In this document: piece after piece, positions 12,600-37,200 of the stretch
Layout: each line of letters opens with the position of its first letter
Position numbering within the stretch: position 1 is the stretch's first letter
Source of the DNA: Candidatus Bathyarchaeota archaeon
Lineage (GTDB): Archaea > Thermoproteota > Bathyarchaeia > Bathyarchaeales > Bathycorpusculaceae
NCBI GenBank assembly: GCA_963739305.1
Contig: CAVTZU010000016.1
Location: 1 to 61,312 of the forward strand
Length of the DNA stretch: 61,312 bases
Direction of reading: 5' to 3'
Position numbers and translations under genes: made by a program
Notes under the pieces: model-generated
The model's input: only the letters and a program-made list of their open reading frames with translations
Databases searched by the model: none
What the model was told of the DNA's origin: nothing

Positions 12600-13328
12600 T
12601 CAAGTCTGATCCTCGGTATCAATGACGGGTTCAAACTCTGCTCTTTTCTTCTCCGCTTTCGGAGGTCTCGGGTTTGCGTAGACATAGATTATTACAGATG
12701 CTACGCCCAGTACTCCCACTTCACCGTAGATCAGCATTGTTTGAAAGCCTGTTGAAGCCCACGCTGGTGGAGGCGGTCCCTCATTTGTGATTAGTCCGTT
12801 GACCTCGTTATGGTCCATTATCGTGTTTCCCTGGTCTGCAACGACGCTTTGGGTTACGCCTGCAGACGGTGGGTTAAGCTCTATGGTGGAAGTGCCGACA
12901 CGAACCACCGTGAAATTAATTGCCAGAATCACTCCTGTACCGTTGACGAACTTTGCTGAACCGGGTGCGAAAAAGTCGGCGACAATCATGACTCCTTTAC
13001 TAAAGTTCATTTCATTGAAAACCATTATCGTCGAAGCATTTACCGTTTTAAAGAATGGGCCTTCTCGAACCTCGACGGGTGGACCTCCAACATAGGGAGG
13101 TTGACCGCTCGTCACATTAAGGTAATATGGATCCCAGGTCAATTTTATCTGCCATCCTGAGCAAGTGGACACCTTGGTCAGCGTGAAGTTAACCAGCACG
13201 GTCGAACCCGCTTCGCTTACATTGTAGATCTTGTCCACGCTTAGTACTGCCTGAGTTGGACGAAGGTATAGGTATGCTGCGAGAATGAGTAGTACGGCCA
13301 ACACGAGGAATAGCAGTTTGCGCTTCAA
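12600..13328 (-). CDS. Cohesin-domain protein with C-terminal TM (candidate anchoring scaffoldin)
   Basis: N-terminal hydrophobic helix; cohesin-like V.VNFTL..V....GWQIKLTWDP..LNV...EGPF...GTGVILAINFTV...G.STIEL; Pro linker; TM; charged tail. Confidence 0.72.
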   Translation of the reverse strand: MKRKLLFLVLAVLLILAAYLYLRPTQAVLSVDKIYNVSEAGSTVLVNFTLTKVSTCSGWQIKLTWDPYYLNVTSGQPPYVGGPPVEVREGPFFKTVNASTIMVFNEMNFSKGVMIVADFFAPGSAKFVNGTGVILAINFTVVRVGTSTIELNPPSAGVTQSVVADQGNTIMDHNEVNGLITNEGPPPPAWASTGFQTMLIYGEVGVLGVASVIIYVYANPRPPKAEKKRAEFEPVIDTEDQT

Positions 13329-13469
13329 TTCTGTTCACCTTGGCATGGTATAGTGAATGCTTTTATATTTTAACTTGTTGTTCCAGATGGCCTTCAAGAA
13401 GATGGATGCTTTTTGATTGATAACGAAAAAGAAAAAGAGATGGTGCTTCCGACTTTGTTCGGCTAGTGT

Positions 13470-14486
13470 CTAGAGTCGTCTGCGGCGTCGAAGTGCGTAG
13501 GCGATGAGCGTTGTGGCCATCAGCAACGGAATGAAGAGCAACGTGAATTCGGGGATTGTGCCAATTATTGTTACCGGTTCCTCGCTGAGGTGAGCTGTGA
13601 AGTAAAGGTATGTGTTCGTCGTGTCATTTGTGACTTGTGGAGTCACTCGGTACTCCGTTGACGTTGACTGTCCAATTTCCAGCAGGGCTGTTCATCAAAG
13701 CCTATCGGGATAGTCACGTTCACGTATCCTGTGTCCCCGTTAGTGCCGGTGAGATTGAACGATAGACTCCAAGTTGGTGGACCTCCGACGAATGCAACTG
13801 TACCGTTTACGACCGTCTCGTTTGAGACTGTTGTGACGTTGTAGGTTTGACTGTTCCACTGAATGGGGGTCACCACTGGTGTTTACGATTTGGTGGCCCG
13901 TAGATCCTGTAGGTCGCGTTCACAGCGCTAATGGGGATAGAAGCAACACCGGTGACGTCGCCAGCTTTGGCAACCGTGAGCGTGAAAGGGCACGTCGACA
14001 TATGAGCCGACAGCAGGGATCTGTGTCACGTTGAAAGTCATCAATGCAGCTGCCAATTCACCAGTAACGTTTATCGGACAATAACCGTCAGCTTGCGCCG
14101 AAATTAGGTCTTGATATGTATAGGCATACGTGACGCTTTGGTTGTCCTTCTTGAGGTTGAGCTTCCATATGTTGTCTTGGTGCGCTGATGGTGTCACCGT
14201 TGCGTAGAGGTTTTCGTTGAGAGTCAAGCAGGTTACTACGCCGGCGGTCCAGTTGAGCGTAAATTGCAGGCCGGCCAGTCCTGTGATGTTTGCTATCGAA
14301 ACGTTAACGGCTGAACTGAGCGCCGGTGGCACTTGCTTGAATCGTTGCGGATGGGGGTTCAACAAGAAGCGTTGCCCCTGTTTGAGCCGAAGCTGGACGT
14401 ATGGTCGTGGCGGAGTAGAATATCGTTGAAATCATTAGTATGCTTATTATGAGCCATGGAAGTTTTCTAATTTTCATGTTAGTCAT
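13470..14486 (-). CDS. Cohesin-domain protein with PEF-CTERM sorting signal, frameshifted
   Basis: Signal peptide (ORF 14304-14486); cohesin (VNVSIANITGLAGLQFTLNW...GELAAALMTFNV, ORF 13928-14365); second domain (ORF 13643-13876); C-terminus GTIPEFTLLFIPLLMATTLIAYALRRRRRL* with TAG at 13470-13472. Confidence 0.75.
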
Positions 14487-14632
14487 TTTAAACTACACCT
14501 TTTTTATGATTTCTTTGTTGGATGTATTTAACACTTATTGTCAGATAACGTCCGATTCCTTAAGCACGTCAGTGTTGGAGTTAGATATTGAGAATCCGTT
14601 GCTCGACCATTTAGAGGAAGAAAAAGAGTTTT

Positions 14633-15885
14633 TCACTTGAGTTTTCTGAACTTTCTTTTTCGGGATCCTCTTATAAAGTAATATCCGAGAACGGGTATCC
14701 ATACTGCCGGCACGATTATTGCAAAGACAAGTTCGAGTGGAAGATTGAAAGGCGGCGAAGCTGGACTGATTGTCACGGTCAGCGTCTTCGCTGCAGAGTA
14801 TCGTGCGAAGTCTGTCACGTTCAATGTCACGTCGTAGGATCCGGGTTCCCTGTACAAGTGACTGACTAGAGCCGCCCGTTTCATTCGTCGTCTCGTTTGT
14901 GCCGTCACCGAAGTCCCAGTGGTAGGATGCGATTCCTGAAGCATTATCTGTGCTTGCGGCGGCGCTGAAGTTGAGATTCCATCTGAAGTTTCCGAACACG
15001 TATTCTGCCGTTGGTGGTTGCGGAGAGTATGTGAAAGCGACTGATGGCGGAGTTGTGTCTGTGATGAAGTTGACTGGGTCTGAGGCACCCATTTTGCCTC
15101 CGGTATCGTTCGCATACACGATGAGAGTGTGGTTTCCGTCTGACGTCTGTATGTTGGTATTCGTCAAGATCGTAACGTTTGAGTGCCCGTCAATGCTGTA
15201 TCCGATCCAGACGGTTTGTTTGCTCAATGTGAACGTCAGGTTCACATTGTTTGAGTTGTATGTGGCGTTATTGATTGGTGAGGAAATTAGTATTTCCGTA
15301 GCGGGGTTTCCGACTCTTACCGTGCCATTGATGGTCGTGTAGGGCATCGAAATGTCTGCATGCGCTTCGTCGCCGATCTTGACCAAAGCGAAAGTGAGGT
15401 GTGAACTGCCGATGCGCGTTCCATTGAACGTGACCACGGCAACTGTGTGATTTCCTGTTATCGGTGAGTAGCCGGCTGCATCTGCGTCGATTATGTTCTG
15501 GAAAGTATAGGTATATTTCAGATTGCCAGCGGTGTTGTTTATGTTTTGCTGTATTGCCCAGATGTTGTCCCAGTTGGCTTCAGGGGTTACCGAGTGGAAA
15601 AGGACGTCAGTCATGTTTATCCCCGTCAAAACCGTGGGGTCCCATACGAGGCCGATTTCAAAACCGACCGCTCCGTCCGGAGACGGGAAGATTGGGGAGA
15701 TTGCCGATTTGGATTGTAACGTTGAATAGTTGGCCTACGCCGACGATTGTTTCTGGCGGATCAATCCATAAGACTGCTTGGTCTATCGCATGTGATCTTG
15801 AAACGGCTCCGTAGAAGCCAAGGGCCATGATTAGAATAAACAGCATGGAATATCTAAACGCGTTGGTGCGTTTCAGATTGAACAC
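14633..15885 (-). CDS. Cohesin + Ig-like + PKD protein with C-terminal TM, frameshifted
   Basis: Signal region and LWIDPP...GQLFNVTIQI (ORF 15658-15930); cohesin, ISSP.N.TY Ig domain and YHWDFGDG PKD (ORF 14541-15629); SHLY.EPGSY...TM...RKRKFRKLK (ORF 14633-15115). Confidence 0.72.
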
Positions 15886-15992
15886 CTTGAAGACAGAAGT
15901 ACGATGTGCAACATTTAAGTTTATCGACATTCATCCTGAAATGTCAAACAACTCATTTTGAGGGTCTGTTGAGAAAAAGAGGGGTGGATTTT

Positions 15993-17872
15993 TTATATTC
16001 TTTGACCGAAGTGTCCAGCAAGAATGATTATGTCGTAGATGTCAACCACTCCGTCTCCGTTTAAGTCAGCGTTGGGGTTCCAGTTGGGATCTCCTGGCTT
16101 GGACCCATAGGCTCCTGCTGCAAGCAGTGCATCGTAGATGTCGACGACGTCGTCTCCGTTGATGTCTCCTTGAATCTTCAGTTTGACGATGCCACCGGTG
16201 AGCGTGTTATCGGATACATGTGTTTCGAATGGGAGTGGCGGTATCTGTGCACTTAAGACGTACTTTCCATACGGTACTCCCGTAGTATACCACACGAATG
16301 TGATTGTGGCGTTGGTGTTTGGCGCAAGTCCCGTGACGTTCAGTGTGGTGAGCAGGGTGCTGTTGTAGTAGACGTATACGGGGAAGTTTTCTGTGATGTT
16401 TCCTTCGTTCGTGACGGTGATCGAGACGTTTGTGTCGCCACCCTGATAGAGCACGTCTGGAGATGCAGAAATGTCGACGATTCCGACGTCTATTATTAGG
16501 CTCTGGAAGAATCCGTTGTGCACTTCGTGGGTTATCGGTTGACCACCAGAGTCGACGAGTTGCGTGTCCGTGAGCGTTAGGTTGGTCGCGCCTAATGATT
16601 TCACTCTGAATTTGATTGTAACGAGCGTGGTTGCTGCATCGATGTTTATGGGAACAGCGGGAGAATAGTAGGTGACGTTTATGAACACGAATCCCTGTGT
16701 GTTGTCGATCATCTGGTTCGGAATGTAGTGGGTTTCATTCATGACATCCTGCACTTCGACTTGAAGACACACTAGGACGTTAGGGTCAAAACTCAAGTTG
16801 AACTGATAACCGTACAAGTCTCGGACTTCCGCGAGCGTCACGTTGACTTTGAAGGTTGCAGGCGGAACTAGCGTTGGGTCTATTAATACAGGAGGGTCGA
16901 TGGCTAGCTTAGCGACGAGGATATTGTCGAAGGCTCCATCCGAAGATGTGAAAGCCAGAGAAGAGCCGAGGGAATCGATCAGTTGGATGCTGTATAGGTG
17001 AAGCACCGTCGTTCCCAAGTTTTGAACATGGAAGCTGATCTGAGCGAGGACGCCGTTACCGTCGAGCGAGCTGGAAGAAGAAACATTAAACTTCACGAAT
17101 CCAGTCGCGTTGTCGATCTGGGTTGTCACTGTGGCTGAAAGCGGTATGAAGCTGCCCCGGGTTATTGAGTTCGCATTCAATAGAGTTGCGTTGAAGCTAA
17201 GACTGAACTCGAGTCCGTAAACGCCTGAGGCGTTTGTGATGTCAACGTTGAATTTGAAGTCGCTTCCAGGCGTCATGCTGACGTTGGATATACTTGCTGG
17301 GTCCGCGCGGGACAAGGCAGGCGGTGTTGGTCGAGCGTTGTTGAAGAATCCGTCAAATGTGTCATCGGCAACGGGTTCCGAGTGGGATCTCCGAGTTTTG
17401 ACACGTAGAAGTGGAGCATGGTCTTTCCGATTCCCATTACTTTGAGTGTGATGTTCGCCACGATGTAGCTTCCATTTATCGGTGCGTAACCAGCGTCTGA
17501 CGCTGCAGTTATGTCTTGGAAGGTGTAGGCATCGCATGACCCAGCCGTTGGAAACGATGTTTTTGATTGCCCATATGTTGCTGGACTCGTTCGGCGGCGT
17601 AACTTGGTGGAACATGATGTCCTGCAGTACCATTCCGTTCAATATGACAAGGTACCATCGCATTTGGGACTTTGGACCCCTGCCAACGGGCGGCATTGTC
17701 AATTTTGACCGTTATGTTGAAGGTTGAAGTGGGAACGAGCACCTGATTGATGATGCTCGGTCGGTCAATGGCGAGCCTTATGGGATTCGTTGCGAGCGCG
17801 TGCGGAGCAAGCGTGAAAGCAATAGGGCAGTAAGAGGATAGCGGGAAAGAGTACACTGAGTTTCTTATGCAT
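15993..17872 (-). CDS. Three cohesins + CARDB-like Ig + dockerin (candidate adaptor scaffoldin), 5' part frameshifted
   Basis: ATG 17872 signal peptide; cohesins STFNITVKI..., FKFNVDI.N....YGLEFSLSFNATLL...GNGVLAQISF and FKVNVTL..V.DLYGYQFNLSFDPNVL; DVGIVDI...N.G...ENF CARDB; GDINGDDVVDIYDA...ADLNGDGVVDIYDI dockerin. Confidence 0.85.
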
Positions 17873-17908
17873 TTTTCCTTCTCCTTAATATGGGTATATC
17901 CCAGTTTT

Positions 17909-17936
17909 GTTATAAACGTTCTGGAATCTTGTTCCA
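17909..17936 (-). promoter_or_regulatory. Conserved upstream box + TATA
   Basis: Minus strand TGGAACAAGATTCC-AGAACGT-TTATAAC. Confidence 0.6.
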
Positions 17937-18098
17937 GTCTGGTTGCGCGACGATGCAAATAATTCATAACTCGAATTTGCAAGGAAACTGGCGGGACTAT
18001 CTTTTGAAAATGGTACGGACAAATTATTTAGAGGATGCCCGATGCTGATTCATTGAAAAATAAAAAATGGAGATGTTTGATGATGCGTCTTTTTAGGC

Positions 18099-19979
18099 CT
18101 AGAAAGCTAGGAGTATGAATCGGCGTTGGTGCATATCCGAGCCACTGGGTAAAGGTAAGAAACCGCTTTCTACGGTTCCACCTAGGAATGGCCAGTAGCT
18201 AAGAAATACGTGTGCAACTTCACCCTAGTCCTGCACGAGGCAAAATTTTGGAATGTTCAGCGTCAATACGTCTGTGAAGTTCTTGTACTGGCAGAATATT
18301 GTTCCACCGATTGTCACTTGCTTGGATGTGAAAGCGAATGGTACACCGGTTTCGTCTAGGCCGGTGACTGTGATTGTTACGTTGTAGAATTGTTGTGCTT
18401 GCGATCCGTAACTAACAGTGGCTGTAATTGTATTGTTGACAGTGTGGTCGTAGGTAGTTTTGTCTAATGTGACTTTCCAGATTTGTACCAGATAGTCGTA
18501 GTGGAACTGTACCGTGTCGTTTACGATGTTGCATGCGACGTCGACTGTGCCGACTATTTTCCACACGCCTATGTACTGTTCTGGGTTGACGCATGGCCAT
18601 GGAAGTCTGAAGCTTGTTGTTGGGATGCCGTTTGCGTTTGTTCTAGCGTATATGACGCCCCAGGTGTTGCCCAAATTGTCGATGATTTGGAAGGCAACAT
18701 CCTTCTGTTGTTCAGGATATCCGTTGTACGTGACGTTTGCAAAGATTGTAACGTCATTCTGCGGCCAGAACATGTCGGCTGGGTTGTTCGGTCCTTGTCC
18801 ACCGTATGGGGCTGGATAAGGTGTGCCGTCTTGTCCGACGAAGACATCGATTGCTCGGCCTGTGACTAGGGGCTGTATGCTGTAGGATCCGCTAACTGTA
18901 TGGGCCGTATCTACTGCTATGACGCCGCCAGTTATGTCGCCAACCTTCAGGTCATAGAGATTCAGAGCGCTTCCAAGCACTAATGGGAATAGCGCCTTGC
19001 GCGGTTGCGTTGAACTCGATGTATGCCAAGGGTGTGTGGTTTGGATCTGGTGCTGACCGATACGGAGCGTGCCAAGTGCCGTTGACATCTGGCAACACGA
19101 CGTCTCCAATCTGCACATAGCCTGCACCACTGGTCGTCAAACATAATATAAAATAGTATGGCGCTCCACCGAATGCTGGTAGCCATGGTCCTTCAAACAT
19201 GCCTAAGAGTTGCGGATGCTGAATCGTTGTGGCATTCAGTTTGAACTCGAAGCCAATTGTTGCCCCAGAGGGACGTAAGGTTGTTGACGCAACTACGCTT
19301 CACGTTGAATACTTGACCGACCGCCGTTGCCGTGTAAGTTGATGGTTCACCGTATAGTATGGGCCTAGTGTCGGTGCAACCCAGTTCAGCTGGTATAGTC
19401 CGTTCGTGACTGTTACGGCCAATGGGGTTTTCAGCTTATGTCACCTATTTTCACGTTCGACAACGTGAAAGCGGTGGAAGACGCTCCCGTGGAACGGCGC
19501 GGGCACCATCGCCTTGAACACAAACGACGCCATTGCGATTGGTGACGTAATGTTCGCTGGTGCAGAGCCGTCAGCCTGTGCCAAGGTTAGGTCTTGCCAT
19601 GTCTGAGAGTAGTTTGCTGTTCCAGCAACGTTGCTGAATGCCAGTTTAAGATTCCATATGTTGGCAAGGTCTGTTACGTTTGTAATTTGGTGCATCAGTA
19701 CCTCTGTCATGCTCACTACATTCAAGACTGTTGGATCCCACGAGAGGTCAAATCAGCCACCGGCAAATCCAGCGTTTAATGGCACAGAAAAGCCATTGAT
19801 TGTGACGTTCACCATGAACGTGCTGCCAACGTTGAAGCTGTTTGGCGGTGGGAATATGCTGCTCGGTGGGTCCACGTATACGATCCAGGAACAGCTGCCT
19901 TTGCTGGGAACATCGCTGCGATTCCAAATAGCATTGTTGCAATCATCAATATAGATAGAATTCTAGCGATTGATTTCAT
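18099..19979 (-). CDS. Secreted protein with two cohesin-like domains and uncharacterised C-terminal beta domains, heavily frameshifted
   Basis: ATG 19979 signal peptide; fragments 19441-19725, 18952-19200 and 18225-19130 give cohesin-like segments (MASFVFK; FEGPWL...PDVNGTW...LAYIEFNAT) and GRAIDVF...YGGQGPNNPADMFWPQ. The 3' end position is approximate. Confidence 0.65.
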
Positions 19980-20030
19980 TATGTTTTCTCCCTTCTCCTT
20001 TTTGTTCACCTATTACATCTCTATTCTCCC

Positions 20031-20058
20031 AATTTAAGGATTCTGGAATTATCTTCTA
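20031..20058 (-). promoter_or_regulatory. Conserved upstream box + TATA
   Basis: Minus strand TAGAAGATAATTCC-AGAATCC-TTAAATT. Confidence 0.6.
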
Positions 20059-20127
20059 GCCCACTCGTGAATCAGAAAGAACAACATTATCCAGAATAGA
20101 ATGTGTATCACTTGAGATATTGAAAAC

Positions 20128-20140
20128 AAAAAAGGGGGAA
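20128..20140 (-). terminator. Pyrimidine/oligo-T terminator-like tract
   Basis: Minus strand TTCCCCCTTTTTT about 25 nt after the SBP stop. Similar C-rich + oligo-T tracts follow other minus-strand genes (15974-15987, 34165-34180, 45486-45505, 47390-47408). Confidence 0.45.
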
Positions 20141-20164
20141 ATGAGGATTTTTTCCTTCGCCTGT

Positions 20165-22836
20165 TTATGGTACGTGTAAGTTGAAGTGGCCCGCCAGGAT
20201 GATGGCGTCGAAGATGTCTATGATACCGTTATTGTCACTGTCAGCGTCAGCGTTGAAGAGCTTTTGGCCTGTGGATGTTCCAGAGGCGCCTGCCAGCTTG
20301 ATAGCGTCGAAGATGTCCACTAGGCCGTTTCCGGTGACGTGGCCTGGGAGCGTCTTGGCCGATAAGAGTGCCTGCAGCTTCTGGATGTTGTTGGTTTGGG
20401 TGAGGCTCCTGTGCGTTGCTGGTGAGTGGCTGTGTTTCGCCTGCTACTCGCGTACGGGATGCCCGTGCTGTTGCCAGCCAATAGCTGATTTGTGCCGTCA
20501 CACCACCATATCATGCTTGTAAGGAAGCATCTGATAGTGGTGCCAGGGGGCGACGAAGGTGCCGTTTGCGAACTGCTTGTTGCTGCCGGTTTGTGTATGT
20601 CAAACCGACTACCACATACATAATCGCGACAGCGCCGTTGTTGTCGTCCTGTTTACGTGCAGCGTATATGTCCTTGTGTCTGTTGATTTGCGTTAGTGTT
20701 GCCTATTCTCATTTGGCTGTGGAAGATGTATGTGATCAATGGCGTTGGGTTTGGTGGTGTAACAGTGCTTTGCATGTTCAAGTCAACGTTCTGGAGTGCA
20801 GATACTGACTTGTACAGGTCGTATGCATCGGTCCTGGGAACAGTGCGTTATAGTACCAGCCTTGTACCCAGTCTCTTGCGAACCTTCTGCCCACGGGTTG
20901 AACCAGCGGTAGGGTTATGGCGTCGTTGTAGAATCTTGCCTGCAAGTCGAGGTAGTCAAGTCCACGTTGAGTGACGTTTGTCTCGATTATTCCTGCATTG
21001 ATTTCTGCGTCGATTATCGTTTGGTCAGCTGGGAACGGAGGTCCTTGACCAATCGGGAAGTTCCCTGTGGATTGCATGTATGGCTGTGCGAAGTCGTGTG
21101 GGTCAGCAAAGTCTGCCAACCAGCCTAGAGTAGACGGCATGCCCTTGAGTTCATGGCGTCCAAGAAGACCGGCCAGTCTAGGCCCACGACGTTAACCTTG
21201 TACTTTGAGTTCGAGGATCTGGAATGCCGTCGCAATCAATCTGCATTGCGATCATTCTCTGGTCGTTGCCAATGTTGTACAAGATGGTTGTTTCGAACCC
21301 TGAGCTCCCAACGTTGAATCCGTCAACGACTGCTGCGTTCAACTCGGTTTGCATTTGAGCAGTGTTAAGGTTGCGTAGAACCGTGCTGTGTTCTTGTAGG
21401 AAGGTGGACTTAGGCCGTCTACCCACCATGATGCTTGCTGCAGTCCTTCACCGAAGTACGGCTTCCGATATGTACTCTGTATAGTTGATTGCCCACGCGA
21501 AAGCCCTTCTTACGTGCTCGTTGGCGAAGAACAATGGTTCAGCTGGCAGTGACGTGAGGTGACCCTACGTAGGATTGGTAGGAACTTGCACCCGTCACGT
21601 TCAAGCAGAAGAACATCATGTCATTGCTCAAAGCAGCAACGTTGTAGACCAAGTTGATTCCTGGAGCAGGGTGATAGGCATCGGTCACCAAGAGGTCAAA
21701 CATGTTGGCCCTCGGAACGACTGCGGTGTCGAATTCACCTTCAAGGAACAGCATCTTCCTCGTCGGCCACGAATCAATACTTTCTCGATAACGATTGTAA
21801 CGTGGTTTCCAGCCCATCCGCCCCAATAGGCGGCGAACTGGTCGATTCTCCAGATCTTGTTAGTCTGGTCCCATGACGTGAACAGGTATGGACCGGTGCC
21901 CATGATTTCGTTCACGTGTGGGCTGCCGCTAGTATACTTTGAGCCGGCAACTGCGCCGTAGATTGCGGGGTCTTTCCATGCGTCAAGTTCACTGCGCGTG
22001 GCTGTTGGTTTCCAGTGCCACAGATTAGTCCAGCCTGCGTTGAATAGCCCGTTCCATCCACCACGTTCCATTACCCATTCTGGCTCGACTATGCAGCCCC
22101 AGGTTTGCGCGAAAATCTGTTGCAGCAGCCTTGAGCCCATGGGTTCAGGAAGTGGAAACTCACGTCGTTAGCGCCGGGTCCTGCATAGACCCATCCTTGA
22201 ATCCTGGTGCCGCAGCGGCTTCGTCTGCTGTGTTTTGGAATGTGCCGTTATCGTAGGTAATGTACGGTCCGCCGGTAAGGATGTAGCTCCAACCTGCCAT
22301 CGGGCTCCTGTGAAAGCGGAGCCGAACCACATCCATGTGGTGCGTAGTATGAGTCGTAGACCATTTGTCTCTGGAACGAGTAGATAACGTCGGACGCTTT
22401 GAGGTTGCGTGAGGGAATGATGCTGCCGTCGGCCGCCGTCCACGGTTGGAATGTGGCTGTCGTGCGGATGTTGAATGTATAGTATGCACCGGATCCGTTG
22501 TACACTACCGTCGGCAATGCCGTGGCCAATACTGGCGTGTAGCTGTCGAGGTCAGCGTACTCTGAAACCGTCAGGTTATGTCCAACACCAGGGGTGAAAC
22601 TGACTACGTTCTTGTCATTCCACCATATCAGCGTCTGTGCGACGTTCTGTATCAACTCGCCACTCGCTGTGTCGTAGGCACGAGCTGGGTCCATCCTTGA
22701 GGGTTGACCTATCGTACCAACGTAGTAAGTGCTTGTGTCGATTGGCGGTTGTGTTGACAATACTGGAATTCACTGCAAATATGCTAGTCATTAGTAGAGC
22801 TGTTGCGATTATGGTTATCAGTTTTAGATTCTTCAT
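20165..22836 (-). CDS. oppA: Family-5 (OppA/DppA-type) ABC substrate-binding protein with C-terminal dockerin, heavily frameshifted
   Basis: Signal peptide; GTIGQPSRMDPARAYDTASGELIQNV; DVIYSFQR; GTGPY; FLEGEFD; LGWLADFADPHDF. C-terminus LPGHVTGNGLVDIFDAIKLAGASG...ADSDNNGIIDIFDAIILAGHFNLHVP* (TAA 20165-20167). Lies downstream of oppBCDF. Confidence 0.8.
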
Positions 22837-22896
22837 GTTAATCCCTTCTTATCTCCTATTCTCCTTTTTATCAGCAAGATTACATAACTGAAGCCC

Positions 22897-22924
22897 ATAT
22901 TAGCGTTTACGGAAAATTGTTCTA
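22897..22924 (-). promoter_or_regulatory. Conserved upstream box + weak TATA
   Basis: Minus strand TAGAACAATTTTCC-GTAAACG-CTAATAT, upstream of ATG 22836. Confidence 0.5.
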
Positions 22925-22997
22925 TACTCAGGTACCGTGCAAACGGTTCCTGAATCGTTCGGTGAACATGAAGAATCCTAATGGAAGGGTTGTCGTG

Positions 22998-23249
22998 TCA
23001 GATCAACCATCCAAACACCACGGACACACCTAGCATTGCGGCTCCCACAATCATCAGGATCATGAAGCGTGAAGAAAGATTGGAACGGAAAAATGCCAAT
23101 GCTGAGCCGACACAGAAAATGACAGCGCCCTCGAGAAACGCGAAATCAGAAGCGATCCACGTGATCGTTTTTCCCGAGAAATATCCTATCGAAAGGAATA
23201 ATCCGAAAAAAGCCCCCAGTGAGACATCTGCAATCGACAGAATTGCCAT
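22998..23249 (-). CDS. Small membrane protein
   Basis: 83 aa with about three hydrophobic segments; same strand as the ABC operon. Confidence 0.55.
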   Translation of the reverse strand: MAILSIADVSLGAFFGLFLSIGYFSGKTITWIASDFAFLEGAVIFCVGSALAFFRSNLSSRFMILMIVGAAMLGVSVVFGWLI

Positions 23250-23321
23250 TGCTAAAAATATTCGTTAAAAAAAGCGTGCCAAGACAAATCCAAATGGATT
23301 ATTCCATTCACCTAAACTTGA

Positions 23322-24370
23322 CTATTTGTTAAACAAGTGGCACGCAACAAAATGTTCGTTTCCAACGTCGATCAGCTTTGGCTCTTGTGTCTGACACACT
23401 TGCATCGCATTTTCGCATCGTGGGTGAAATCTGCAGCCGCTAGGAGGGTTGACTGGACTTGGAACTTCGCCGCTGAGTATGACGCGCTCTCTTTTTACTG
23501 TTGGATCGGGGACTGGAATTGCCGAGAAAAGCGCGACGAATAAGGATGAAGAGGTCTCTTATAGAGCTCCGTGGTGCGCGCCAGCTCAACTAGTTTTCCA
23601 AGATACATTACTCCGACTCTATCGGCTATACATTCAACGACGCTCAAATCGTGACTGATGTAAAGGTATGTCAGATCAAAATCTTTGCGCAAACTCTGAA
23701 ACAGGTTAAGCAGCTGAGCGCGAACAGAGACGTCTACTGAGGAAGTGGGTTCGTCCAGAAATACCAGCTTAGGAGTGGTGATTAGAGCTCGAGCGATAGC
23801 TATTCTCTGTCTCTGACCACCGCTGAACTCGTGAGGATAGCGATAGAGGTGTCTGTCACCCAAACCTACCCTCTCAAGCATCTCACTGACTCTTTTCAAA
23901 CCAACGCTGCCTTTAGCGATGTTTTGAACAGCCAGAGGTTCTAGAAGAATGTCTTTGACGAGCATTCTAGGGTTGAGGGAGCGCGTGGGATCTTGGTAAA
24001 CCATCTGCATCATTCTCCTCATCTCCCTCAACTTGCGTCCCTTGTAAGACGCGAGGTCCCATTGCCCTCTTAGCTTCCGAAGTTCCAACCCAGCTTTCTT
24101 TTCCTTCTGAAGAGTTCGTATTCTCTCCTTGACTTCATCTGGAACATCAAAAAATATGTTTCCAGACGTGGGGTTTATGAGCCTCAGAGTTGTCTTGGCA
24201 AGCGTGGTCTTGCCGCATCCAGATTCACCGACCAATCCAAAGGTTTCGCCCTTCTTCACGACGAGCGAGATGCCGTCGACGGCTTTGACGGCTCCGACCT
24301 TCCTTCGAAGCAAACCTCCTGTCAGCGAGTAATACTTCTTCAAATCTTCCAGTTCAAGCATGGTGCTCAT
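23322..24370 (-). CDS. oppF: Oligopeptide/oligosaccharide ABC transporter ATPase, frameshift near 23550
   Basis: [32 protein letters not shown] and PLHPY. The C-terminal [11 protein letters not shown]...ACHLFNK* is in another frame, ending TAG 23322-23324. Confidence 0.9.
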
Positions 24371-25564
24371 TTGGATTCACCCGTGAACAAATGACAGAGT
24401 ACGTAGTGATCTTTTCCTGCTGTCACGAACTCCGGCTTCTTGCTCACGCACTGGTCCATCGCATAGGGGCATCTGTCGTTGAATCTACAACCCGCCGGAG
24501 GATTGATTAGGCTAGGCACGAAACCCTCAATTGATTTGAATTCGCGTCCAGGTCTGGGAATGCACTCCAACAGCGCCTTCGTGTATGGATGCAAAGGATT
24601 CTTGAATATCTCCTTGACCTCGCCCAGCTCCACAACGCTTCCTGCGTACATAACAGCGACGCGGTCACACATTTCAGCGACAACGCCCATGTCGTGCGTG
24701 ATGTACTGAATTGTCATGCCATATTTTGCCTTGAGATCCTTAATGAGAGTCAGAATTTGCAGTTGGACCGTGACGTCCAGATTCGTGGTTGGTTCGTCAG
24801 CTATCAAGAGTTTCGGGTTACAGGATAGGCCCATGGCTATTACGGCTCTCTGAGCCATGCCTCCACTCAACTCGTGTGGATACATTTCTGCAACTCTGTC
24901 AGGGTCAGGTATTCGCATGTCTTTCAGCATTCTTACGACTTCTCTGCGAACTTCCTCGTCAAACTTCTGTTTGAAACGCTTCAGGACAGGAATTCTTGAA
25001 GCAATTCGCACGACGAGATTGTCTGAATCTTCTTGAAATCTCCTGAGCAACCGTTCCTCTCGTCTGGTGAGGACGGTCTTCATCAGTCTGTTCTCTCTTT
25101 TTCACTTAGGTTGCCATTCTTCAAAGTTTCGGTTGCTCTCTTGCTTTCTTCTAACAGGTTGGAGCAAAGTTCCTCCTTCCTGTGGTGTAAAATGGCTTCG
25201 GAAATCTGTCGTCTAACCGTATACACAGGATTCAATGCAGATTTGGGATCCTGGAAGATCATTGAAATGTCGTTTCCTCTCACGCTTCTCAAGTAAGCAT
25301 CTCGTTGACGCAGCAGGTTTACCCACTGCTTATCCTTGAAGAGGAGCACCTTTCCTCCTTCTATTTTTCCCGGTGGGGAATAAGATTCAGCTCCGAGAAA
25401 CCTGTCACAGACTTGCCGCACCCGGTTTCACCTACGACGCCGATGGTTTCACCGTCTTTCACTTGCATGTTGACGCTGTCGAGTGCCTTGACCACGCCCT
25501 CGTAAGTGTAGAACCTCAGGTCGAGGTCCTTGATTCGAAGCAGTTGTTCTTGTTCTTCAGTCAT
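24367..25564 (-). CDS. oppD: Oligopeptide/oligosaccharide ABC transporter ATPase, two frameshifts
   Basis: GETGCGKSVT (25361-25564); MIFQDPKSALNPV (25083-25421); YPHELSGGMAQR, ADEPTT and GCRFNDRC (24367-25083). Confidence 0.9.
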
Positions 25565-25565
25565 C

Positions 25566-26917
25566 TCACTTTCTCCTCAAAGTTGGGTCCAATACGTCCC
25601 TCAGAGCATCTCCAAGCAGGTTCCATCCGAGCACGAAAATCGATATGAACAGGCCGGGGATAACGAATGTAAACCAGTATTCGAAAGGTGAGTTGGCTTT
25701 GCATAGATCCAGTTCAGCGAAAGGTAAATGATCTGTCCCCAGTCAGCGTATCCTGGACTCGCTCCGAGTCCCAGGAAACTTAGGGCGGCTGCCGCCAGAA
25801 CTATTGTTCCCAAGTCAAGTGTGAAGACTATCAGAACCGGGTAGATTGAATTTGGAAGAATGTGGCTGCGAATGACTCTGAAGTCCGAGCAACCTACAGA
25901 TTTTGCCGCTTCCACGTAATCCTCGTTCTTGATTCTTAATATTTCTCCTCGTATAAGCCTCGCATATCCTGGCCAGCCTACGATCACCAATGAAAGCATT
26001 ACAGCGTCCAAGCGTTGAACAAAAACTGCAGGCACAAGGACCACTATCAAAGCCATTGAAAGGATCAAGCCTGGAAAAGCAAGAACGATATCTGTGAGAC
26101 GCATCAAGACTTCATCCATCCATCCACCGTAGTATGCAGCTAGAATTCCTACTGCGAGCCCGATAACCAATGATCCACCTGCGACGAGCAGTCCTATACG
26201 CAGAGCTGATCTCGAGCCCCAGATAACGCCATAGTACATGTCATATTGTCCTTGCGTTGTGCCGAAGGGATGTTTCGCGTTCGGCGCGATTGGAATCAGG
26301 GAAACTCCGTCCTTTGGAATCATCATAGAGTCTCCTCCTTGACTTACGTCACCAGCCGGAGCGAGAATCGGGGCGAACAATGCCATAAAAACATAGAATA
26401 GGACAATTGCCGCGCCAATCAGTGACAGTGAACTTTTTCTTACGAGCCGTAGCGTGAACTTCCATTCTTTAGTCCTCGGCTGCATTTCAACGCCCACTTT
26501 TCCAAGAATCGCATGGATGTTGTCGCCCCCGAAGAATGTCATTGCCGAATGCGTTGTCACGTAGGACAATGTCGCAACGTCCAAACTCAAGAAGGCTATG
26601 AAGAAAACCCACTGGACACCGCCATAAGCCACGGGCAACAGAATTCTAGTAATCGCATCAGTAATAGAGAGCGCGACGATGACCAACCATCCGAGCGCTT
26701 CGCCTGACCTTAAATAATAGCCAACTATTAGCTCAAGCAATCCTGTTCCGATAAAAAGAACCGCAAAGAAAAATGAGTCGAAGTTAGGGATGACTGTCGG
26801 CAACGGATTTCCGATTATTAACAGTAGAAGTCCAAAGGTCAACTGGACAATGCCTATTATGATGTTAAGTGTTGCCAGCAGGGTTATTCCTAGTGGTCTT
26901 TCTCCAACCATTTTCAT
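25566..26917 (-). CDS. oppC: ABC transporter permease with extra N-terminal membrane domain, frameshift near the 3' end
   Basis: HPFGT, DEVLMRLTD, YVEAAKSVG (EAA loop) and LSFLGLG. The end GDALRDVLDPTLRRK* (TGA 25566-25568) is in another frame. Confidence 0.9.
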
Positions 26918-27951
26918 CCCAACCTAATTCTCGGGTCTATGTAAGCATAGAGAACGTCGACGATCAGGTTTGAGAGGACGAACAGAACAGCGCTCATGAG
27001 TGCGTACCCGATTACTGGCGGAATATCCAGAGCTCTCGCAGAATCTGCCGCGTACTGCCCTATACCACCCATGCTGAACACCGTTTCTGTAATAACGACT
27101 CCTGTCAGCAAGCCTGCAATCATCAACCCTGAAATCGTTATTGCTGGAATCAAAGCGTTCCTTCTTGCATGTATATTAACGACTTCTTTCCTGCTCAGAC
27201 CCTTTGCCTTCGCTGCGCTTATGTAGTCTTTGCCGAGCGCTTCAAGCATGCTTGAACGTGTGACTCTGACCATTACGGCAGAGTTCAGCAAGGAAAGAAC
27301 CGTTATTGGAAGAACAAGATGGCGCAGTGCATCGACGAAAATCCACAATTGTCCGTTCAGCAGAGAGTCAATGGTCATGAGACCAGTGTGCCACTGCCAG
27401 GTCGTGTGCGGGTCGCTGATAAAAGTCAGAACCTCCTGTCCGTATCTTTGGGGCGGGAACCAGCCTAAGCCGGCATAGAATATCGATAGCAGCACTATAC
27501 CAAACCAGAAAGACGGCAGAGAGGTGCCCAGTATCGCCAGGACTCTTGAAGCCTGATCAACGGGCTTATCTTTGTTTGATCCTGACATCACACCCAACGT
27601 TATTCCGAGGAAAATGATGATGGGTGAAGCAAACATGACAATCTCAAACGTTGCAGGCAACCTGTGCATAATCGCGTCGAACACCGGTATACCTTGGACG
27701 TCCAAACCTAGATTGTGATCAACCAGCAACGCTCTTATCCAATAATAGAACTGTACGTAAATGGGATCGTAAAGGCCATTGGCCTGTGCTATTTGCTTCC
27801 AGAATACGTGCTGCTTTGGGTCGGTTATATATAAGGACACTCGCATTCCCACGGGTAGAAACTGCACAACAGCAAAGATGACTATGACCGCACCGATCAA
27901 CACGGGTATTGCAAGCAGGAGCCTTCTCAACACATAGGTTCTCAAGCCCAT
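26914..27951 (-). CDS. oppB: ABC transporter permease
   Basis: YVLRRLL, RLPATFE, PSFW, TRSSMLE...DYISAAKAKGL, HARRNALIP, ETVF and YAYIDPRIRLG. Confidence 0.93.
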   Translation of the reverse strand: MGLRTYVLRRLLLAIPVLIGAVIVIFAVVQFLPVGMRVSLYITDPKQHVFWKQIAQANGLYDPIYVQFYYWIRALLVDHNLGLDVQGIPVFDAIMHRLPATFEIVMFASPIIIFLGITLGVMSGSNKDKPVDQASRVLAILGTSLPSFWFGIVLLSIFYAGLGWFPPQRYGQEVLTFISDPHTTWQWHTGLMTIDSLLNGQLWIFVDALRHLVLPITVLSLLNSAVMVRVTRSSMLEALGKDYISAAKAKGLSRKEVVNIHARRNALIPAITISGLMIAGLLTGVVITETVFSMGGIGQYAADSARALDIPPVIGYALMSAVLFVLSNLIVDVLYAYIDPRIRLG

Positions 27952-29596: not shown

Positions 29597-30676
29597 ATGG
29601 GCCTAAAAAAGCTGATCGCTAGAAGAATACTGCTATCGGTGCCCGTTGCGATAGGTGTCGTCACCGTCATCTTCTTGGTAATGTCAGCTATGACGCCAAC
29701 CATGAAAGTAGCGTATTACCTTGGTGAACGTCCAGCGGCTCTCAGACCAGACAACGTGAAAAAGGCGATTCACGATTTTGGATTGGATCAACCGCTTCCA
29801 CTTCAATACCTAAGTTGGGTCAAGAGAATAGTCTATTTTGATTTCGGTCGTTCATACGCGTCACAGGGAGAAGAAGGCCCCCTAGTTCTTGACCTCATTT
29901 TGGGTAGCTTGCCCCAGACTTTCGAACTTATTCTGTACTCGATGCCCCTCGTGCTGATGATCAGCATCTGGCTTGGAACCAAAGCAGCATTCAATCAAAA
30001 CAGAACCCTGGATCACGCTGCCCGAGTGTTTGCCACTCTGGGCACCTCATTTCCAGTTTTCGTTGTCTCGATGTTTCTCATAATGTTATGGCTGGTCGTT
30101 CAAAATCAATTCCATTTCAATTTCCTGCCCATGGGAGCCCTTGACTATAACATGCAGATCGATCTTAATTCAAGAATAGCACACGGTTCTTTCACGGTTT
30201 ACACGAACATGATTACAATTGACACGCTCCTGAACGGAGACACGATGCTTTTTCTTGACTCAGTAGCGCACATTATGTTGCCGGTGGCGGTTCTAGTGTT
30301 CAGTCAATGTGCACTTTTGATCAGAGTGACGCGATCGGGACTGATAGAGGAACTTGGAAAACCTTACGCTGTGTCCGCTACAGCGAAGGGGCTTTCAGAG
30401 AAAGAGGTGCTTTACAAGCATGCCAGAAAGAACGCCTCGATCTCGGTCTTGACGATTTCAGGCTTGCTCATGAGCAGCATGTTCGTTAACATCGTGATAG
30501 TTGAAAGAGTTTTTGAGAGACCTGGATTTGCATCTCTCCTTATTGATTCTGCCCTGTCGATGAATACGCCTGTGCTGTTTACTGGTGCTATTTTCATAGC
30601 ATTAACGTTTGTCGTTCTGAACCTTGCAGTGGACATTCTGTATGAACGCCTTGATCCAAGGATAAGATTGGCATGA
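29597..30676 (+). CDS. oppB: Second OppB/DppB-type permease paralog
   Basis: GLDQPLPLQY, FDFGRS, LPQTFEL, VTRSGLIEEL, AKGL, KHARKNA, VERVF and LDPRIRL. Confidence 0.85.
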   Translation: MGLKKLIARRILLSVPVAIGVVTVIFLVMSAMTPTMKVAYYLGERPAALRPDNVKKAIHDFGLDQPLPLQYLSWVKRIVYFDFGRSYASQGEEGPLVLDLILGSLPQTFELILYSMPLVLMISIWLGTKAAFNQNRTLDHAARVFATLGTSFPVFVVSMFLIMLWLVVQNQFHFNFLPMGALDYNMQIDLNSRIAHGSFTVYTNMITIDTLLNGDTMLFLDSVAHIMLPVAVLVFSQCALLIRVTRSGLIEELGKPYAVSATAKGLSEKEVLYKHARKNASISVLTISGLLMSSMFVNIVIVERVFERPGFASLLIDSALSMNTPVLFTGAIFIALTFVVLNLAVDILYERLDPRIRLA

Positions 30677-34203: not shown

Positions 34204-37200
34204 TTATGGATCAGGTCTCCGTTCTCCGAAGTGTATGCCCATCAGTATGGCGTCGTAGATGTCTATTACTCCATCCTTGTTCAAGTCTGCGTAGGGGTTC
34301 CAGCGTGGATTGCTTGGTGGTGGAGCGTGCGCACCGTAGGAATTGGCAAAGATTATGCCGTCGTAAATGTCCACGACTCCGTCGAAGTTCAGGTCACCAA
34401 TGGGTGTCGGGACGATGTCGTAGTATCCATCTTTGGTGATGTGTGGAATCTTGTTGGCCAGCGGATCGCTCAGCTTGGTCGCAAATAACGTTAGGTTGCA
34501 CGCTGCGTTAGGCAAGGTAAGTCCGATCGGTTGATACTTGACTCTGAACGTTACAGTTGCTATGGTTCCATTTCCACTTGGGAACGGTCCGTGCCATGTG
34601 CCGTTGACGTCTGGAAGTATTAACCCTGCAAAGAGTACATCTTCAGTCGTACTATCGATCGTTTCTACGAAGGGGCCGTAGTACAGCATTCCGCCGTTTG
34701 GAGAGTGCGAATATGCTTCCAAGAACGTTCCGTTCGAAACCTGAAGTACTTCGAGAAGCGTCGAGTTGTACTTAAGTCGGAACTCAAAGCCTGTCAGCTG
34801 CATGGCTGAGGTCACGTTGTACAGTGTTATGTTGACGTTAAACGTGGCGTTCAGAACTTTTGCTCGCACAGTGGACGGTTCAACTTTCATTAGAAGAGTT
34901 ATCGCTGGCACAAGCCTAATCAAATCTGGGTATGATCTGACGTTATCTGCCGTGTTTGTTTCATAAGGAACCGTGTCCGCCGTGGCAGTCAGGTTGTAGC
35001 TTCCAAAGGCTAATCCTGTGGTGTTCCAGTGGAACGCCAACACTTGTTGGAGTCCCGCTCCGAGGCTGTTAACGGCAATCTTGCCTATTTGGGTTGCATT
35101 ATAAGTCAAGGTGACGTTGAAGGTCTCGCTGAAGTTGCCTAGGTTCGCTGCTGTGACGCTCACATCTATCACGTCGCCTGGGACAGCGGAGGTCTTTGAT
35201 GGCGTGATCTGGGTTATTGCGACGTTGTGAGTTCCGAGTACGACTGGGGCGTTTGAAACGATAACTGATGCGCTGCCGGTTCCTTGAACTTGGAATCCAA
35301 GGTCGCTTACTTCGTCTAGTCTCCACACTGCTACGCCCGTTGTGCCGTCTGCGTAGGCTGTGAACTCTTTTTCGTCTGCAGCGTTGAATACTTGGGCTGC
35401 TGAGAAGTCGAGTGTTACTAGTGCGGATGCGCCTGGCGCTACCGTGGTCCAAGAGGTTTGCCAATACGTGTCGCGCCAAGCGGCAGCGTATTCAGGCGGC
35501 GGTGTAGTCCATCCTGTGTTCAGTTTGAGGTTTACGTTGACTGAGGTCGTTCCAACGTTTGTGAAGTAGGCTTCGAGTCTCGTGTAGGCTGAGAAGTCGC
35601 CGAATGTTGAGAATGGGTTGGTGATGCCATATGTCTTGTAGGAGCCTCCTGCAAGCTGGCTTACTGGGAAGTTGTTGCCAACAACCGTGCCAATTGCGGA
35701 ATTTAGTCCTGTGAAGTCAAATTGAACGCCAGGACCAGAGATGTCCGTAACTGTTGCAAGAGTTCCTGGACCAACCTCCTTCGCAAACTGGGTGCCAAGC
35801 TCTGGGTCTGTGAACGATAAAGGTACATCAGAGAAGCTTGACACGACAACTGCGCCAGCGCCGTTTCCTTTGAGGTTGAATTCTATGTTGCTCACTTCGT
35901 CCAGTCTTCTTACCATGACATTTGTCGTCCAGTCAGGGTACTGCCAAGCCGTGTTAGGGTCGTCTCCAGCATTAGAAACCGTGGCGCTAAAGAAGTCAAG
36001 TTTCACAACTTTAGTTTCTCCTGGTGCGAGTGAAACCCAATCTCCCTGCCAGAAAGTGTCTCTTTGTGGACTTCCCCAAGGCGCAACTGTCCAGCCCGTA
36101 TTCATAGCCAAAGCAACGTTTACCGCGTTTGTTCCGACGTTTGTGATGGCCAGTTTGTAGCAGGTGTATGCTGAGAAGTCGTATGGACCCGCGAAGCCAC
36201 TGCCATAATCTTTCCAAACTCCGTTGGCAAGTGCATTCACTGGGAAGTTGTTTCCAACGATAGTGCCAGTTGACGGGTCTAGCCCGGTCAGATCGAATCG
36301 AACGCCAGGACCAGAGATGTCCGTAACTGTTGCAAGAGTTCCTGGACCAACCTCCTTCGCAAACTGGGTGCCAAGTTCCGCGTCTGACAGAGTCAGTGGA
36401 ACGTCGACAATTCGAGTGGCCACGACTGATGCTGCACCATTGCCCAGCACTTGGAAGCCTAAGTCGCTTACTTCATTCAGCCTCCAAATCGCGACGCCGG
36501 TTGTTCCATCAGCGTAATGCGTGAAAACCGGATCATCACCCGCGTTGTATACAATGGCGTTGTTGAATTCCAAGGTCACGGTTGCGGTGGATTTGGCTCC
36601 GATAGTGGTCCATGCGCTCTGCCAATACGTGTCTCTCGTCGGGTCTGGAACGGTCCAGCCGGTGTTCATTTTCAAGCAGACCATTATCGGGTTAGTTCCG
36701 AGGTTTGTAAACATCATACTGTACCGAGAGTAGATTCCGAAGTCTCCGTAGCCGCCTATTCCGTCGGCGGCGCCTCCTGCAAGCTGGCTTACTGGGTATG
36801 CGTCTCCTGTGGTTGTCCCTGATGATGTGCTTAGTCCTGTGAAGTCAAATTGAACGCCTGGGCCTGCTATGTCCGTTATGCTTGCGACGGTTCCTGGGCC
36901 TGATTCTTTGGCGAATTGCGTGTTCAGCTCATTGTCTTCGGGCGTTAATGTCAAGCTTGGGGTTGTTGCGGAGACGACTAAAGCGGCGCTGCCGCTGCCA
37001 GTCACCTGGAAACCGATGTTGCTGACTTCATTAAGCCGCCAAATTGCGACTCCGGTTGTTCCATCAGCGTAATGCGTGAAGTCTGGATCATCGCTCGCCT
37101 GGTACACTGTTGCGCTCGAGAAGTCGAGTGTTACGACTCTGCTCTTCGATGGTTCAACGTAGACCCACCCATTTTCCCAGTAGGTGTTCCTAGTAGGATC

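Follow-up and report, generated by a model that had tools for sequence, protein, structure and literature searches.

Four ways of holding the receptor of an ATP-binding cassette (ABC) importer are known: it may be free in the periplasm, lipid-anchored, anchored by a transmembrane (TM) helix, or fused to the permease. Archaeal substrate-binding proteins (SBPs) are usually lipid- or TM-anchored, and the Opp-like binding proteins of the Sulfolobus and Pyrococcus literature have a cleaved signal peptide and a C-terminal TM anchor. Here we consider a gene (20165..22836, reverse strand) for a family-5 SBP that ends in a dockerin. It lies on contig CAVTZU010000016.1 of the Candidatus Bathyarchaeota archaeon assembly GCA_963739305.1, and the window analyzed is this whole contig (C16; 61,312 nucleotides); the genome is 2.32 Mb in 36 contigs, 97.1% complete and 7.8% contaminated. 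Bathyarchaeia, which are abundant and uncultured, degrade buried organic matter, and the gene bears on the question of how they capture extracellular hydrolysis products. We know of no experimental demonstration, in any organism, of an SBP attached by plugging into a cohesin.

It should be noted that dockerin-bearing SBPs as such are already known in archaea. According to the dockerin passage of Chadwick et al. (2022, PLoS Biol, PMC9012536), the common dockerin proteins of anaerobic methanotrophic (ANME) archaea are NikA/OppA and TroA binding proteins, and binding partners require experimental determination; Timmers et al. (2017) give domain counts only. Beyond PMC9012536, the listings from literature searches contained no description of the SBP–dockerin architecture, of a Bathyarchaeia example or of a mechanism. 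What is added here is a dedicated TM-anchored cohesin in the cassette, the interchange of dockerin and TM tails, a second dockerin-like tail type, and a Promethearchaeota example. Our reading, to which we give a probability of roughly 0.6, is that the gene encodes the receptor of the adjacent OppBCDF importer and that a non-covalent cohesin–dockerin tether would replace the usual anchor of an Opp/Dpp-type receptor. The reading is strengthened by a conserved cassette and by the swapping of anchors within the family.

Architecture of the receptor and its family

The window copy was supposed, in a sequence-only reading that preceded this analysis, to be one continuous SBP–dockerin frame, and this did not hold: the assembly has 17 frame changes in the gene. 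The genome contains six paralogs (71–82% DNA identity), of which two types (C2:7177-9888, 904 aa; C7:27927-30692, 922 aa) are intact, with one uninterrupted frame each and the order signal peptide, SBP_bac_5, beta-sandwich, dockerin. In these two, SBP_bac_5 scores 83.4 and 87.1 bits (2e-23 and 2e-24; 2.3e-23 for the C2 copy) and Dockerin_1 scores 23.4 and 34.8 bits (cut-off 22.9). Seventeen stop-free pieces of the window gene chain in order onto residues 34–904 of the intact paralog when mapped by piecewise BLASTP; an earlier MAFFT alignment of paralog DNA (all six copies) was too cluttered with indels to be read. The closest intact homolog, P0004, shares 75.7% identity with the pieces over 828 aa (89% in the N-terminal piece); an ortholog both intact and nearly identical to the window copy was not found. 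Single window pieces reach 14.8 and 18.0 bits for SBP_bac_5 (PF00496), below the cut-off of 32.4, because the gene is in 17 pieces. A third copy, the frame at C31:8046-10811 (922 aa), differs by one residue from that at C7:27927-30692, on a separate contig; this near-identity may reflect a duplicated or strain-variant contig, which could add to the contamination estimate.

An AlphaFold2 (AF2) model of the C2 paralog (P0001; pLDDT 92.0, pTM 0.88) has an N-terminal helix (8–30), a two-lobed SBP (43–695), an all-beta domain (700–842) and a two-helix dockerin (845–904). The top Foldseek matches of its SBP in the PDB are GbpA, MppA, DppA, OppA and NikA (E down to 8e-29, TMt 0.65–0.84, identity 12–18%). 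As modeled, and as judged on the paralog, not on the window copy, the SBP domain has the complete two-lobed cluster-C fold of the Dpp/Opp/Nik type. A nearly invariant GWLADFADPDNF in the SBP family aligns with GW.AD..DPDNF of DppA/GbpA, the Asp of which presumably binds the peptide amino group, and the alignment suggests that the ligand class is likely peptide-like. Both peptides and oligosaccharides are possible ligands, because the docked cargo of the genome includes S8/M14 peptidases, GH113, many NosD beta-helix proteins and PQQ propellers.

What had been taken for a simple linker between SBP and dockerin is a beta-sandwich domain. In the C20 paralog piece this domain matches Pfam CARDB (3.4e-6), and the family profile matches the X-module plus dockerin of 2b59_B over positions 806–907. 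The C-terminal sequence quoted in the sequence-only reading is present: the stop-to-stop frame 20165..20443 (reverse strand) holds LPGHVTGNGLVDIFDAIKLAGASG...ADSDNNGIIDIFDAIILAGHFNLHVP followed by the stop, and the frame finishing at 20165 terminates in LPGHVTGNGLVDIFDAIKLAGASGTSTGQKLFNADADSDNNGIIDIFDAIILAGHFNLHVP, with no hydrophobic tail. Read directly, the dockerin consists of two tandem F-hand repeats, each followed by a helix (HVTGNGLVDIFDAIKLA and DSDNNGIIDIFDAIILA). Dockerin_1 (PF00404) gives the C-terminal window piece 14.5 bits (E 0.041, under the cut-off of 22.9), and the window dockerin is not among the genome-scan matches to Dockerin_1 at E≤0.01. A hidden Markov model (HMM) of 41 non-SBP dockerins from the same genome gives the same piece 61.9 bits (E 2.6e-19). 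The earlier description of a family-5 SBP with a C-terminal dockerin and without a C-terminal TM is supported. In the paralog model the dockerin helices are at 856–865 and 889–897, and the paralog dockerin aligns to dockerin 2y3n_B (family profile match, 3e-13).

A database search with the C2 paralog returned 414 proteins at E≤1e-5. Tail types were counted in the best 120 of these 414, among whose source names is [quoted passage not shown]. The genome-derived dockerin HMM finds a C-terminal dockerin in 107, mostly from Candidatus Bathyarchaeia, and precomputed PF00404 and PF00496 are both present in 56 of the 120. Seven have a C-terminal TM tail in place of the dockerin, one a degenerate dockerin-like tail, and five neither a dockerin nor a TM tail, being cut short or otherwise ended. 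The SBP–dockerin features of the window are far beyond chance because they are common to the six genome paralogs and the 414 homologs, and the design is real and common in Bathyarchaeia. Four long homologs (P0048, P0072, P0108 and P0162; 1413–1562 aa) have precomputed Pfam matches to SBP_bac_5, NosD/beta-helix and dockerin; PQQ beta-propeller matches are additionally present in the first three (1481–1562 aa).

From 219 relatives in GTDB genomes we also took 80 species-representative loci for a survey. Fifteen carry a dockerin (13 titled Bathyarchaeia or Bathyarchaeota, one Thermoproteota, one Promethearchaeota), three a TM tail (all Bathyarchaeia), two are cut by contig ends and 60 are plain; no bacterial locus among the 80 has a dockerin on its SBP. 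Six of the "plain" Bathyarchaeia SBPs (L054, L056, L057, L059, L060 and L083), which form one clade, carry a divergent two-repeat tail of the pattern ..PD.V.NMRDI..L..HF..KAP.. / ..DPYGDR..NMRDI.....HF... This ..NMRDI..HF.. double repeat may be a second dockerin type, perhaps with a separate dockerin–cohesin specificity. At L124 (a Promethearchaeota metagenome-assembled genome, MAG) and L065 (a Thermoproteota MAG), the dockerin follows the SBP directly, without a beta-sandwich, and opp genes are nearby.

A FastTree phylogeny was computed for 97 SBP domains from alignment columns occupied in ≥50% of rows, leaving out frames shorter than 560 aa, stop-bearing and contig-end-cut frames, and 88 of the 120 database proteins; the method warns of long branches. 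The TM-tailed proteins in the tree fall in two clades: one groups as sister of the main dockerin clade, and the other lies within that clade (support 99), so that at least two TM/dockerin changes are needed. On this tree, the TM tail and the dockerin tail have replaced each other at least twice, which is consistent with their being equivalent anchors. The sequence-only reading had counted TM-tailed homologs against its own proposal; they do occur, in a minority (7 of the best 120 homologs, 3 of the 80 loci), and we read them rather as support for this equivalence.

Transporter genes and candidate cohesin sockets

The oppB, C, D and F genes lie directly upstream of the SBP gene on the same strand (27951..23495), and the SBP gene stands, as described earlier, between them and the TM-anchored cohesin genes (12600-15930). 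Opp genes were found within 8 kb at 12 of the 15 dockerin-bearing loci of other species; at L065 those near the SBP are ATPase genes only. The 88-aa open reading frame (ORF) between oppF and the SBP gene, a conserved part of the cassette, recurs just upstream of the SBP in L047, L048, L049, L050 and L053 (tblastn, 4e-13 to 2e-24) and is weakly detected in L124 and L065. A second oppB-like permease gene at 29597-30676 (forward strand), followed by a 194-aa ORF with no Pfam match, may be a remnant or part of a second importer.

Given an importer and a dockerin, the question is where the dockerin would plug in. Across the genome there are 51 matches to Dockerin_1 at E≤0.01, of which 48 exceed the cut-off, and 21 to Cohesin, of which 8 fall in the window. 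Dockerin cargo includes S8 and M14 peptidases and one GH113 protein, and is mostly NosD beta-helix, PQQ propeller, CARDB and SBP proteins. The candidate of most interest is the product of 12600..13334, which scores 21.5 bits for Pfam Cohesin (E 2.9e-4, under the cut-off of 24.1) and defines a conserved family; its 36 homologs are ~240 aa long, and PF00963 is precomputed for 24. Its AF2 model (pLDDT 87.4) has helices at 2–22 and 193–218, and the Foldseek matches ranked 1–50 are all cohesins (E down to 1.1e-10, TMt up to 0.80), with PDB entries that include 3fnk, 2b59_A, 2bm3, 3ul4 and the Archaeoglobus cohesin 2xdh. The PPPPxW motif, the predicted helix at 193–218 and a charged tail are conserved in all 39 aligned sequences, and the protein is predicted to be membrane-anchored through this C-terminal helix.

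Members of the anchor family are encoded 22–180 bp downstream of the SBP–dockerin gene in L048, L052 and L094 and 8.9 kb from it in L050, and weaker cohesin ORFs are near L084 and L110 and within 10 kb at all six loci with the second tail type; the genomes are kin, so these co-occurrence counts are not independent. No cohesin ORF was found beside the 59 surveyed loci without either dockerin type. In the window, the adaptor (15993..18027) has Pfam matches to Cohesin (2.6e-20, in two stretches), CARDB (2e-8) and Dockerin_1 (3.2e-7), and L034 also has an adaptor with two cohesins and a dockerin. The 18225..20009 gene has a PF00963 match at 19570-19839 (23.5 bits, with one TGA inside). The genes at 14633..15930 and 13470..14492 have no direct Pfam cohesin match and are called cohesin-like because BLASTP links them (7e-15 and 5e-15, respectively) to a borderline Pfam cohesin at 19441-19752; hhalign of the two against the anchor family was not significant (probabilities of 5.7% and 3.2%).

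Taken together, the SBP would serve as the extracellular receptor of the adjacent OppBCDF-type importer, with a dockerin where a C-terminal TM tail might be expected. It would be secreted and its signal peptide cleaved, after which the dockerin would plug, in a calcium-dependent manner, into a membrane-anchored cohesin. The best candidate socket is the signal peptide–cohesin–PPPPW–TM protein of 12600-13334, reached directly or through the adaptor of 15993-18027. The receptor would thereby be held near the permease, within a surface assembly that carries docked proteases, GH113 and beta-helix proteins. Docking onto membrane cohesins had been proposed earlier, and the tether part of the proposal finds support in the signal peptide–cohesin–TM gene directly downstream in three species and in the at least two tail swaps on the tree. 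A modeled complex between the anchor cohesin (residues 22-190 of A2) and the dockerin of the window copy (residues 28-92 of A3), made without controls, scored 0.02 and 0.23 (mark 0.32) and is neutral.

A receptor plugged into membrane cohesins would couple uptake to a surface enzyme assembly in a modular way. The cassette also supplies small soluble parts (a dockerin of ~60 aa with its beta-sandwich, and a cohesin of ~165 aa).

Features of the window discussed in the text, in order of position
Feature	Position	Strand	Remarks
Dedicated membrane cohesin anchor	12600..13334	-	intact gene (242-244 aa); a cohesin preceded by an N-terminal helix and followed by PPPPxW, a TM helix and an acidic/basic tail
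Signal peptide, cohesin-like domain, C-terminal TM helix, RRRRRL tail	13470..14492	-	frameshifted
Signal peptide, cohesin-like domain, PKD, C-terminal TM helix, basic tail	14633..15930	-	frameshifted; Pfam PKD matches
Adaptor: at least two cohesins, CARDB, dockerin	15993..18027	-	572-aa frame (15993-17711) and frameshifted 5' part
Signal peptide, cohesin-like domain, uncharacterised domain	18225..20009	-	next gene downstream of the SBP gene; frameshifted
SBP-dockerin gene	20165..22836	-	family-5 SBP with signal peptide, beta-sandwich and dockerin; cut by 17 frame changes in the assembly
Dockerin	20168..20347	-	two F-hand repeats: first degenerate (HVTGNGLVDIFD), second canonical (DSDNNGIIDIFD)
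Beta-sandwich (CARDB-like) domain	20356..20793	-	between SBP and dockerin; paralog-model strands 700-842
SBP_bac_5 domain	20808..22757	-	~650 aa, with insertions relative to DppA/OppA; piecewise match to paralog residues 34-695
N-terminal hydrophobic segment (MKNLKLITIIATALLMTSIFAV...)	22770..22836	-	probable signal peptide, no Cys; ~19 residues
Small multi-helix membrane protein	22998..23264	-	88 aa, between oppF and SBP; single-copy in genome
oppF-type ATPase	23495..24370	-	291 aa, intact; ABC_tran 9.4e-31
oppD-type ATPase	24367..25421	-	split by a frame change near 25083 into adjoining frames (112 aa, 238 aa); the 238-aa piece matches Pfam oligo_HPY (1.7e-22) and ABC_tran (3.2e-11)
oppC-type permease	25601..26917	-	438 aa, intact; BPD_transp_1 1.2e-29, OppC_N 6.1e-6
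oppB-type permease	26914..27951	-	345 aa, intact; BPD_transp_1 4.9e-39
CARDB, cohesin and dockerin protein	34204-37590	-	1128 aa; surface-system member
GH113 and dockerin	37788-39368	-	surface-system member
M14 carboxypeptidase/Laminin_G_3 giant	40688-44884	-	surface-system member
S8 subtilase with cohesin match	54123-58808	+	surface-system member

Other explanations and the interrupted frames

Several observations weigh against a dockerin-held receptor of this importer; they concern its N terminus, its partners and its frames. The ~19-residue hydrophobic segment could itself be an uncleaved anchor, a Cys is present in 65 of 89 homolog N-termini, and 29 of the 89 fit a loose lipobox pattern. 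The only canonical SBP_bac_5 of the genome (C24, 268 bits) lacks a dockerin and appears to be held by its N-terminal TM segment, with no other anchor. In the window, the anchor gene is 7 kb from the SBP gene and does not adjoin it. Two of the usual acidic/amide calcium ligands are absent from the first dockerin repeat (its loop has no Asp at positions 1 and 3), and no permease or ATPase genes were found near any of the five other paralog loci examined in the genome.

The length of the hydrophobic (h-) region, the canonical SBP and the homolog Cys residues are what one would cite if the N-terminal segment were an uncleaved signal anchor, lipid-modified in some paralogs, that already holds the receptor, with the dockerin recruiting cohesin-bearing adaptors or enzymes to the transporter. 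The homolog Cys, however, lies inside the h-region, is not conserved, and is missing from the window copy, where the ATG at 22836 (reverse strand) starts a Cys-free MKNLKLITIIATALLMTSIFAV, as the sequence-only reading had said of the lipobox Cys. A lipobox anchor as a feature of the family was ruled out on this basis. The end of the h-region is conserved in homologs as ..AFS-xQPP, with small residues preceding QPP, and the TM-tailed homologs retain the same N-terminal segment, as expected if a cleaved signal peptide is combined with a C-terminal anchor; the segment is therefore argued to be a signal peptide and is probably cleaved. In addition, the partner encoded next door in three species is a membrane-anchored single cohesin and not an enzyme, and we regard the signal-anchor explanation as quite unlikely. 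Another possibility is that the SBP-like domain acts, instead of or besides being a transporter receptor, as a ligand-binding or targeting module of the cohesin–dockerin surface complex, much as a carbohydrate-binding module does in cellulosomes. This would fit the five paralog loci that lack nearby transporter genes, the fusion of P0048, P0072 and P0108 to a PQQ propeller and NosD beta-helix, and the occurrence of the same CARDB and dockerin tail on many non-transport proteins of the genome. It seems distinctly improbable given that the window copy and 12 of the 15 dockerin-bearing loci are in or beside opp operons and that the fold is that of a complete two-lobed cluster-C SBP; moreover, Opp systems commonly include additional orphan binding proteins that use the same importer.

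The frames raise a different concern, which is whether the tethered receptor of our reading is still encoded by an intact gene. No single ORF spans 20165..22836 on the reverse strand, and the longest standard ORFs are 170 and 151 aa. Adjacent pieces always differ in frame (16 changes within the 17-piece chain), and one further change separates the signal-peptide piece from the first SBP piece. Mapped against the intact paralog, none of the 17 interruptions is an in-frame nonsense codon, and the junctions involve shifts of both signs, with no long homopolymer and no shared motif. Seventeen shifts of both signs without a common motif rule out programmed frameshifting or an alternative genetic code. 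Long-ORF cover (frames of at least 120 aa in 3-kb bins) averages 0.86 across the genome versus 0.51–0.59 at the SBP locus. Interruptions concentrate at about 13400-25400 (oppD, the SBP gene and four cohesin genes), and the flanking genes are intact.

To evaluate these junctions, contigs from four independent public runs were compared with the window at ≥88% likeness. Relative to the window they have indels at 22771 (−1), 22338 (+G), 21779 (+C), about 21550 (21558/21561/21544; +2, +1, −1), 21460/21461 (−1), 21382 (+A) and 21146/21134/21126 (+). All seven places coincide with mapped junctions, and the sign is as needed to restore the frame. In the runs that cover each place, the entire covering depth carries the correction at 22771, 21382 and 21146, and likewise at 21460/21461 except in run X4, which is without it. 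RNA-library contigs (X2) cover the SBP gene, and we do not take this as transcription. Less favorably, no public run contains more than 0.20 of the sampled words of the stretch, the correcting indels are those among the indels listed, with 35 additional ones beyond these, and the correcting insertion is in only part of the depth at 22338 (X1: 72.5 of 169.5) and at 21779 (X1: 51.6 of 140.7).

Partial correction at these two junctions is one reason to ask if the window copy, perhaps together with everything at 13.4-25.4 kb, represents a cluster of decaying pseudogenes with real lesions, such that only the paralogs function. Seventeen frame changes in 2.7 kb is a large number for a window in which ORFs of 1128, 1398 and 1561 aa are intact elsewhere; the adjoining cohesin genes and oppD are interrupted too, and three of the six other paralogs (C7a, C15 and C20) are likewise frameshifted. 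Decay would nevertheless be hard to square with interruptions that include no nonsense codon, with pieces that retain so much of the sequence of an intact homolog, and with contigs from other samples that correct seven junctions, four of them fully save for X4 at 21460. A pattern of indels only, restricted to multi-copy gene families, also suits an error of consensus or polishing, and on the whole decay is unlikely. Given the correcting indels in independent-run contigs at seven junctions, assembly error is the likeliest cause, and we have good confidence that the frameshifts are consensus or polishing errors concentrated in multi-copy gene families; the clustering of interruptions in this zone and in paralogs C7, C15 and C20 suggests a failure of polishing in multi-copy surface-protein families. 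It follows that gene calls in this genome undercount multi-copy surface proteins, whose genes carry many frame errors.

Comparison with known systems

A cassette of oppBCDF, a small membrane protein, an SBP–dockerin gene and a cohesin anchor could represent a fifth mode of ABC-receptor attachment, in which the receptor plugs non-covalently and exchangeably, by cohesin–dockerin pairing, into a dedicated TM anchor that has one cohesin and belongs to the cassette itself. We put this forward tentatively, at somewhat less than even odds; it would be used by Bathyarchaeia and by at least two further MAGs, one from Promethearchaeota and one from other Thermoproteota. In that case the paralogous receptors, of which there are seven here, could have sockets in common or compete for them, and uptake would be tied to the scaffold that keeps secreted proteases and glycosidases at the surface. 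The nearest precedent is in ANME archaea, where, as in this genome, an SBP of the nickel/dipeptide/oligopeptide family carries a dockerin and the genome is rich in cohesins, dockerins and adaptors (PMC9012536). The hosts differ (Bathyarchaeia of the Thermoproteota versus Halobacterota), and in the dockerin passage of PMC9012536 the ANME case is one descriptive sentence, with no partner, mechanism or test.

Family and operon logic are shared with the archaeal TM-anchored Opp-like SBPs, and TM-tailed members exist within the family of the window SBP itself (P0082, P0083, P0086, P0095, P0102, P0119, P0120, L051, L055 and L061). The difference is that a beta-sandwich and a dockerin stand in the place of the TM tail, and attachment would be non-covalent and exchangeable. 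Compared with DppA, GbpA, MppA, OppA and NikA (PDB 1dpp, 3m8u, 4toz, 6ofq), the fold and the GW.AD..DPDNF motif are alike, whereas sequence identity is low (at the values given above), the domain is ~150 residues larger, and the C-terminal beta-sandwich and dockerin are additional.

Bacterial cellulosomes (e.g., SdbA of Clostridium thermocellum, and OlpA with Doc918) resemble the Bathyarchaeia system in their two-F-hand dockerin, cohesin-fold anchor and adaptors that combine cohesin and dockerin, and the Ig-like module ahead of the dockerin in the SBP family is like the X-Doc arrangement of cellulosomes. Here, unlike in cellulosome anchors, a single cohesin is carried on a TM helix, without an SLH or sortase linkage; a transport receptor takes the place of a glycoside hydrolase as cargo, and the host is an archaeon. 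By analogy, the system appears to work like a cellulosome-type assembly, and we do not class it as a bacterial cellulosome.

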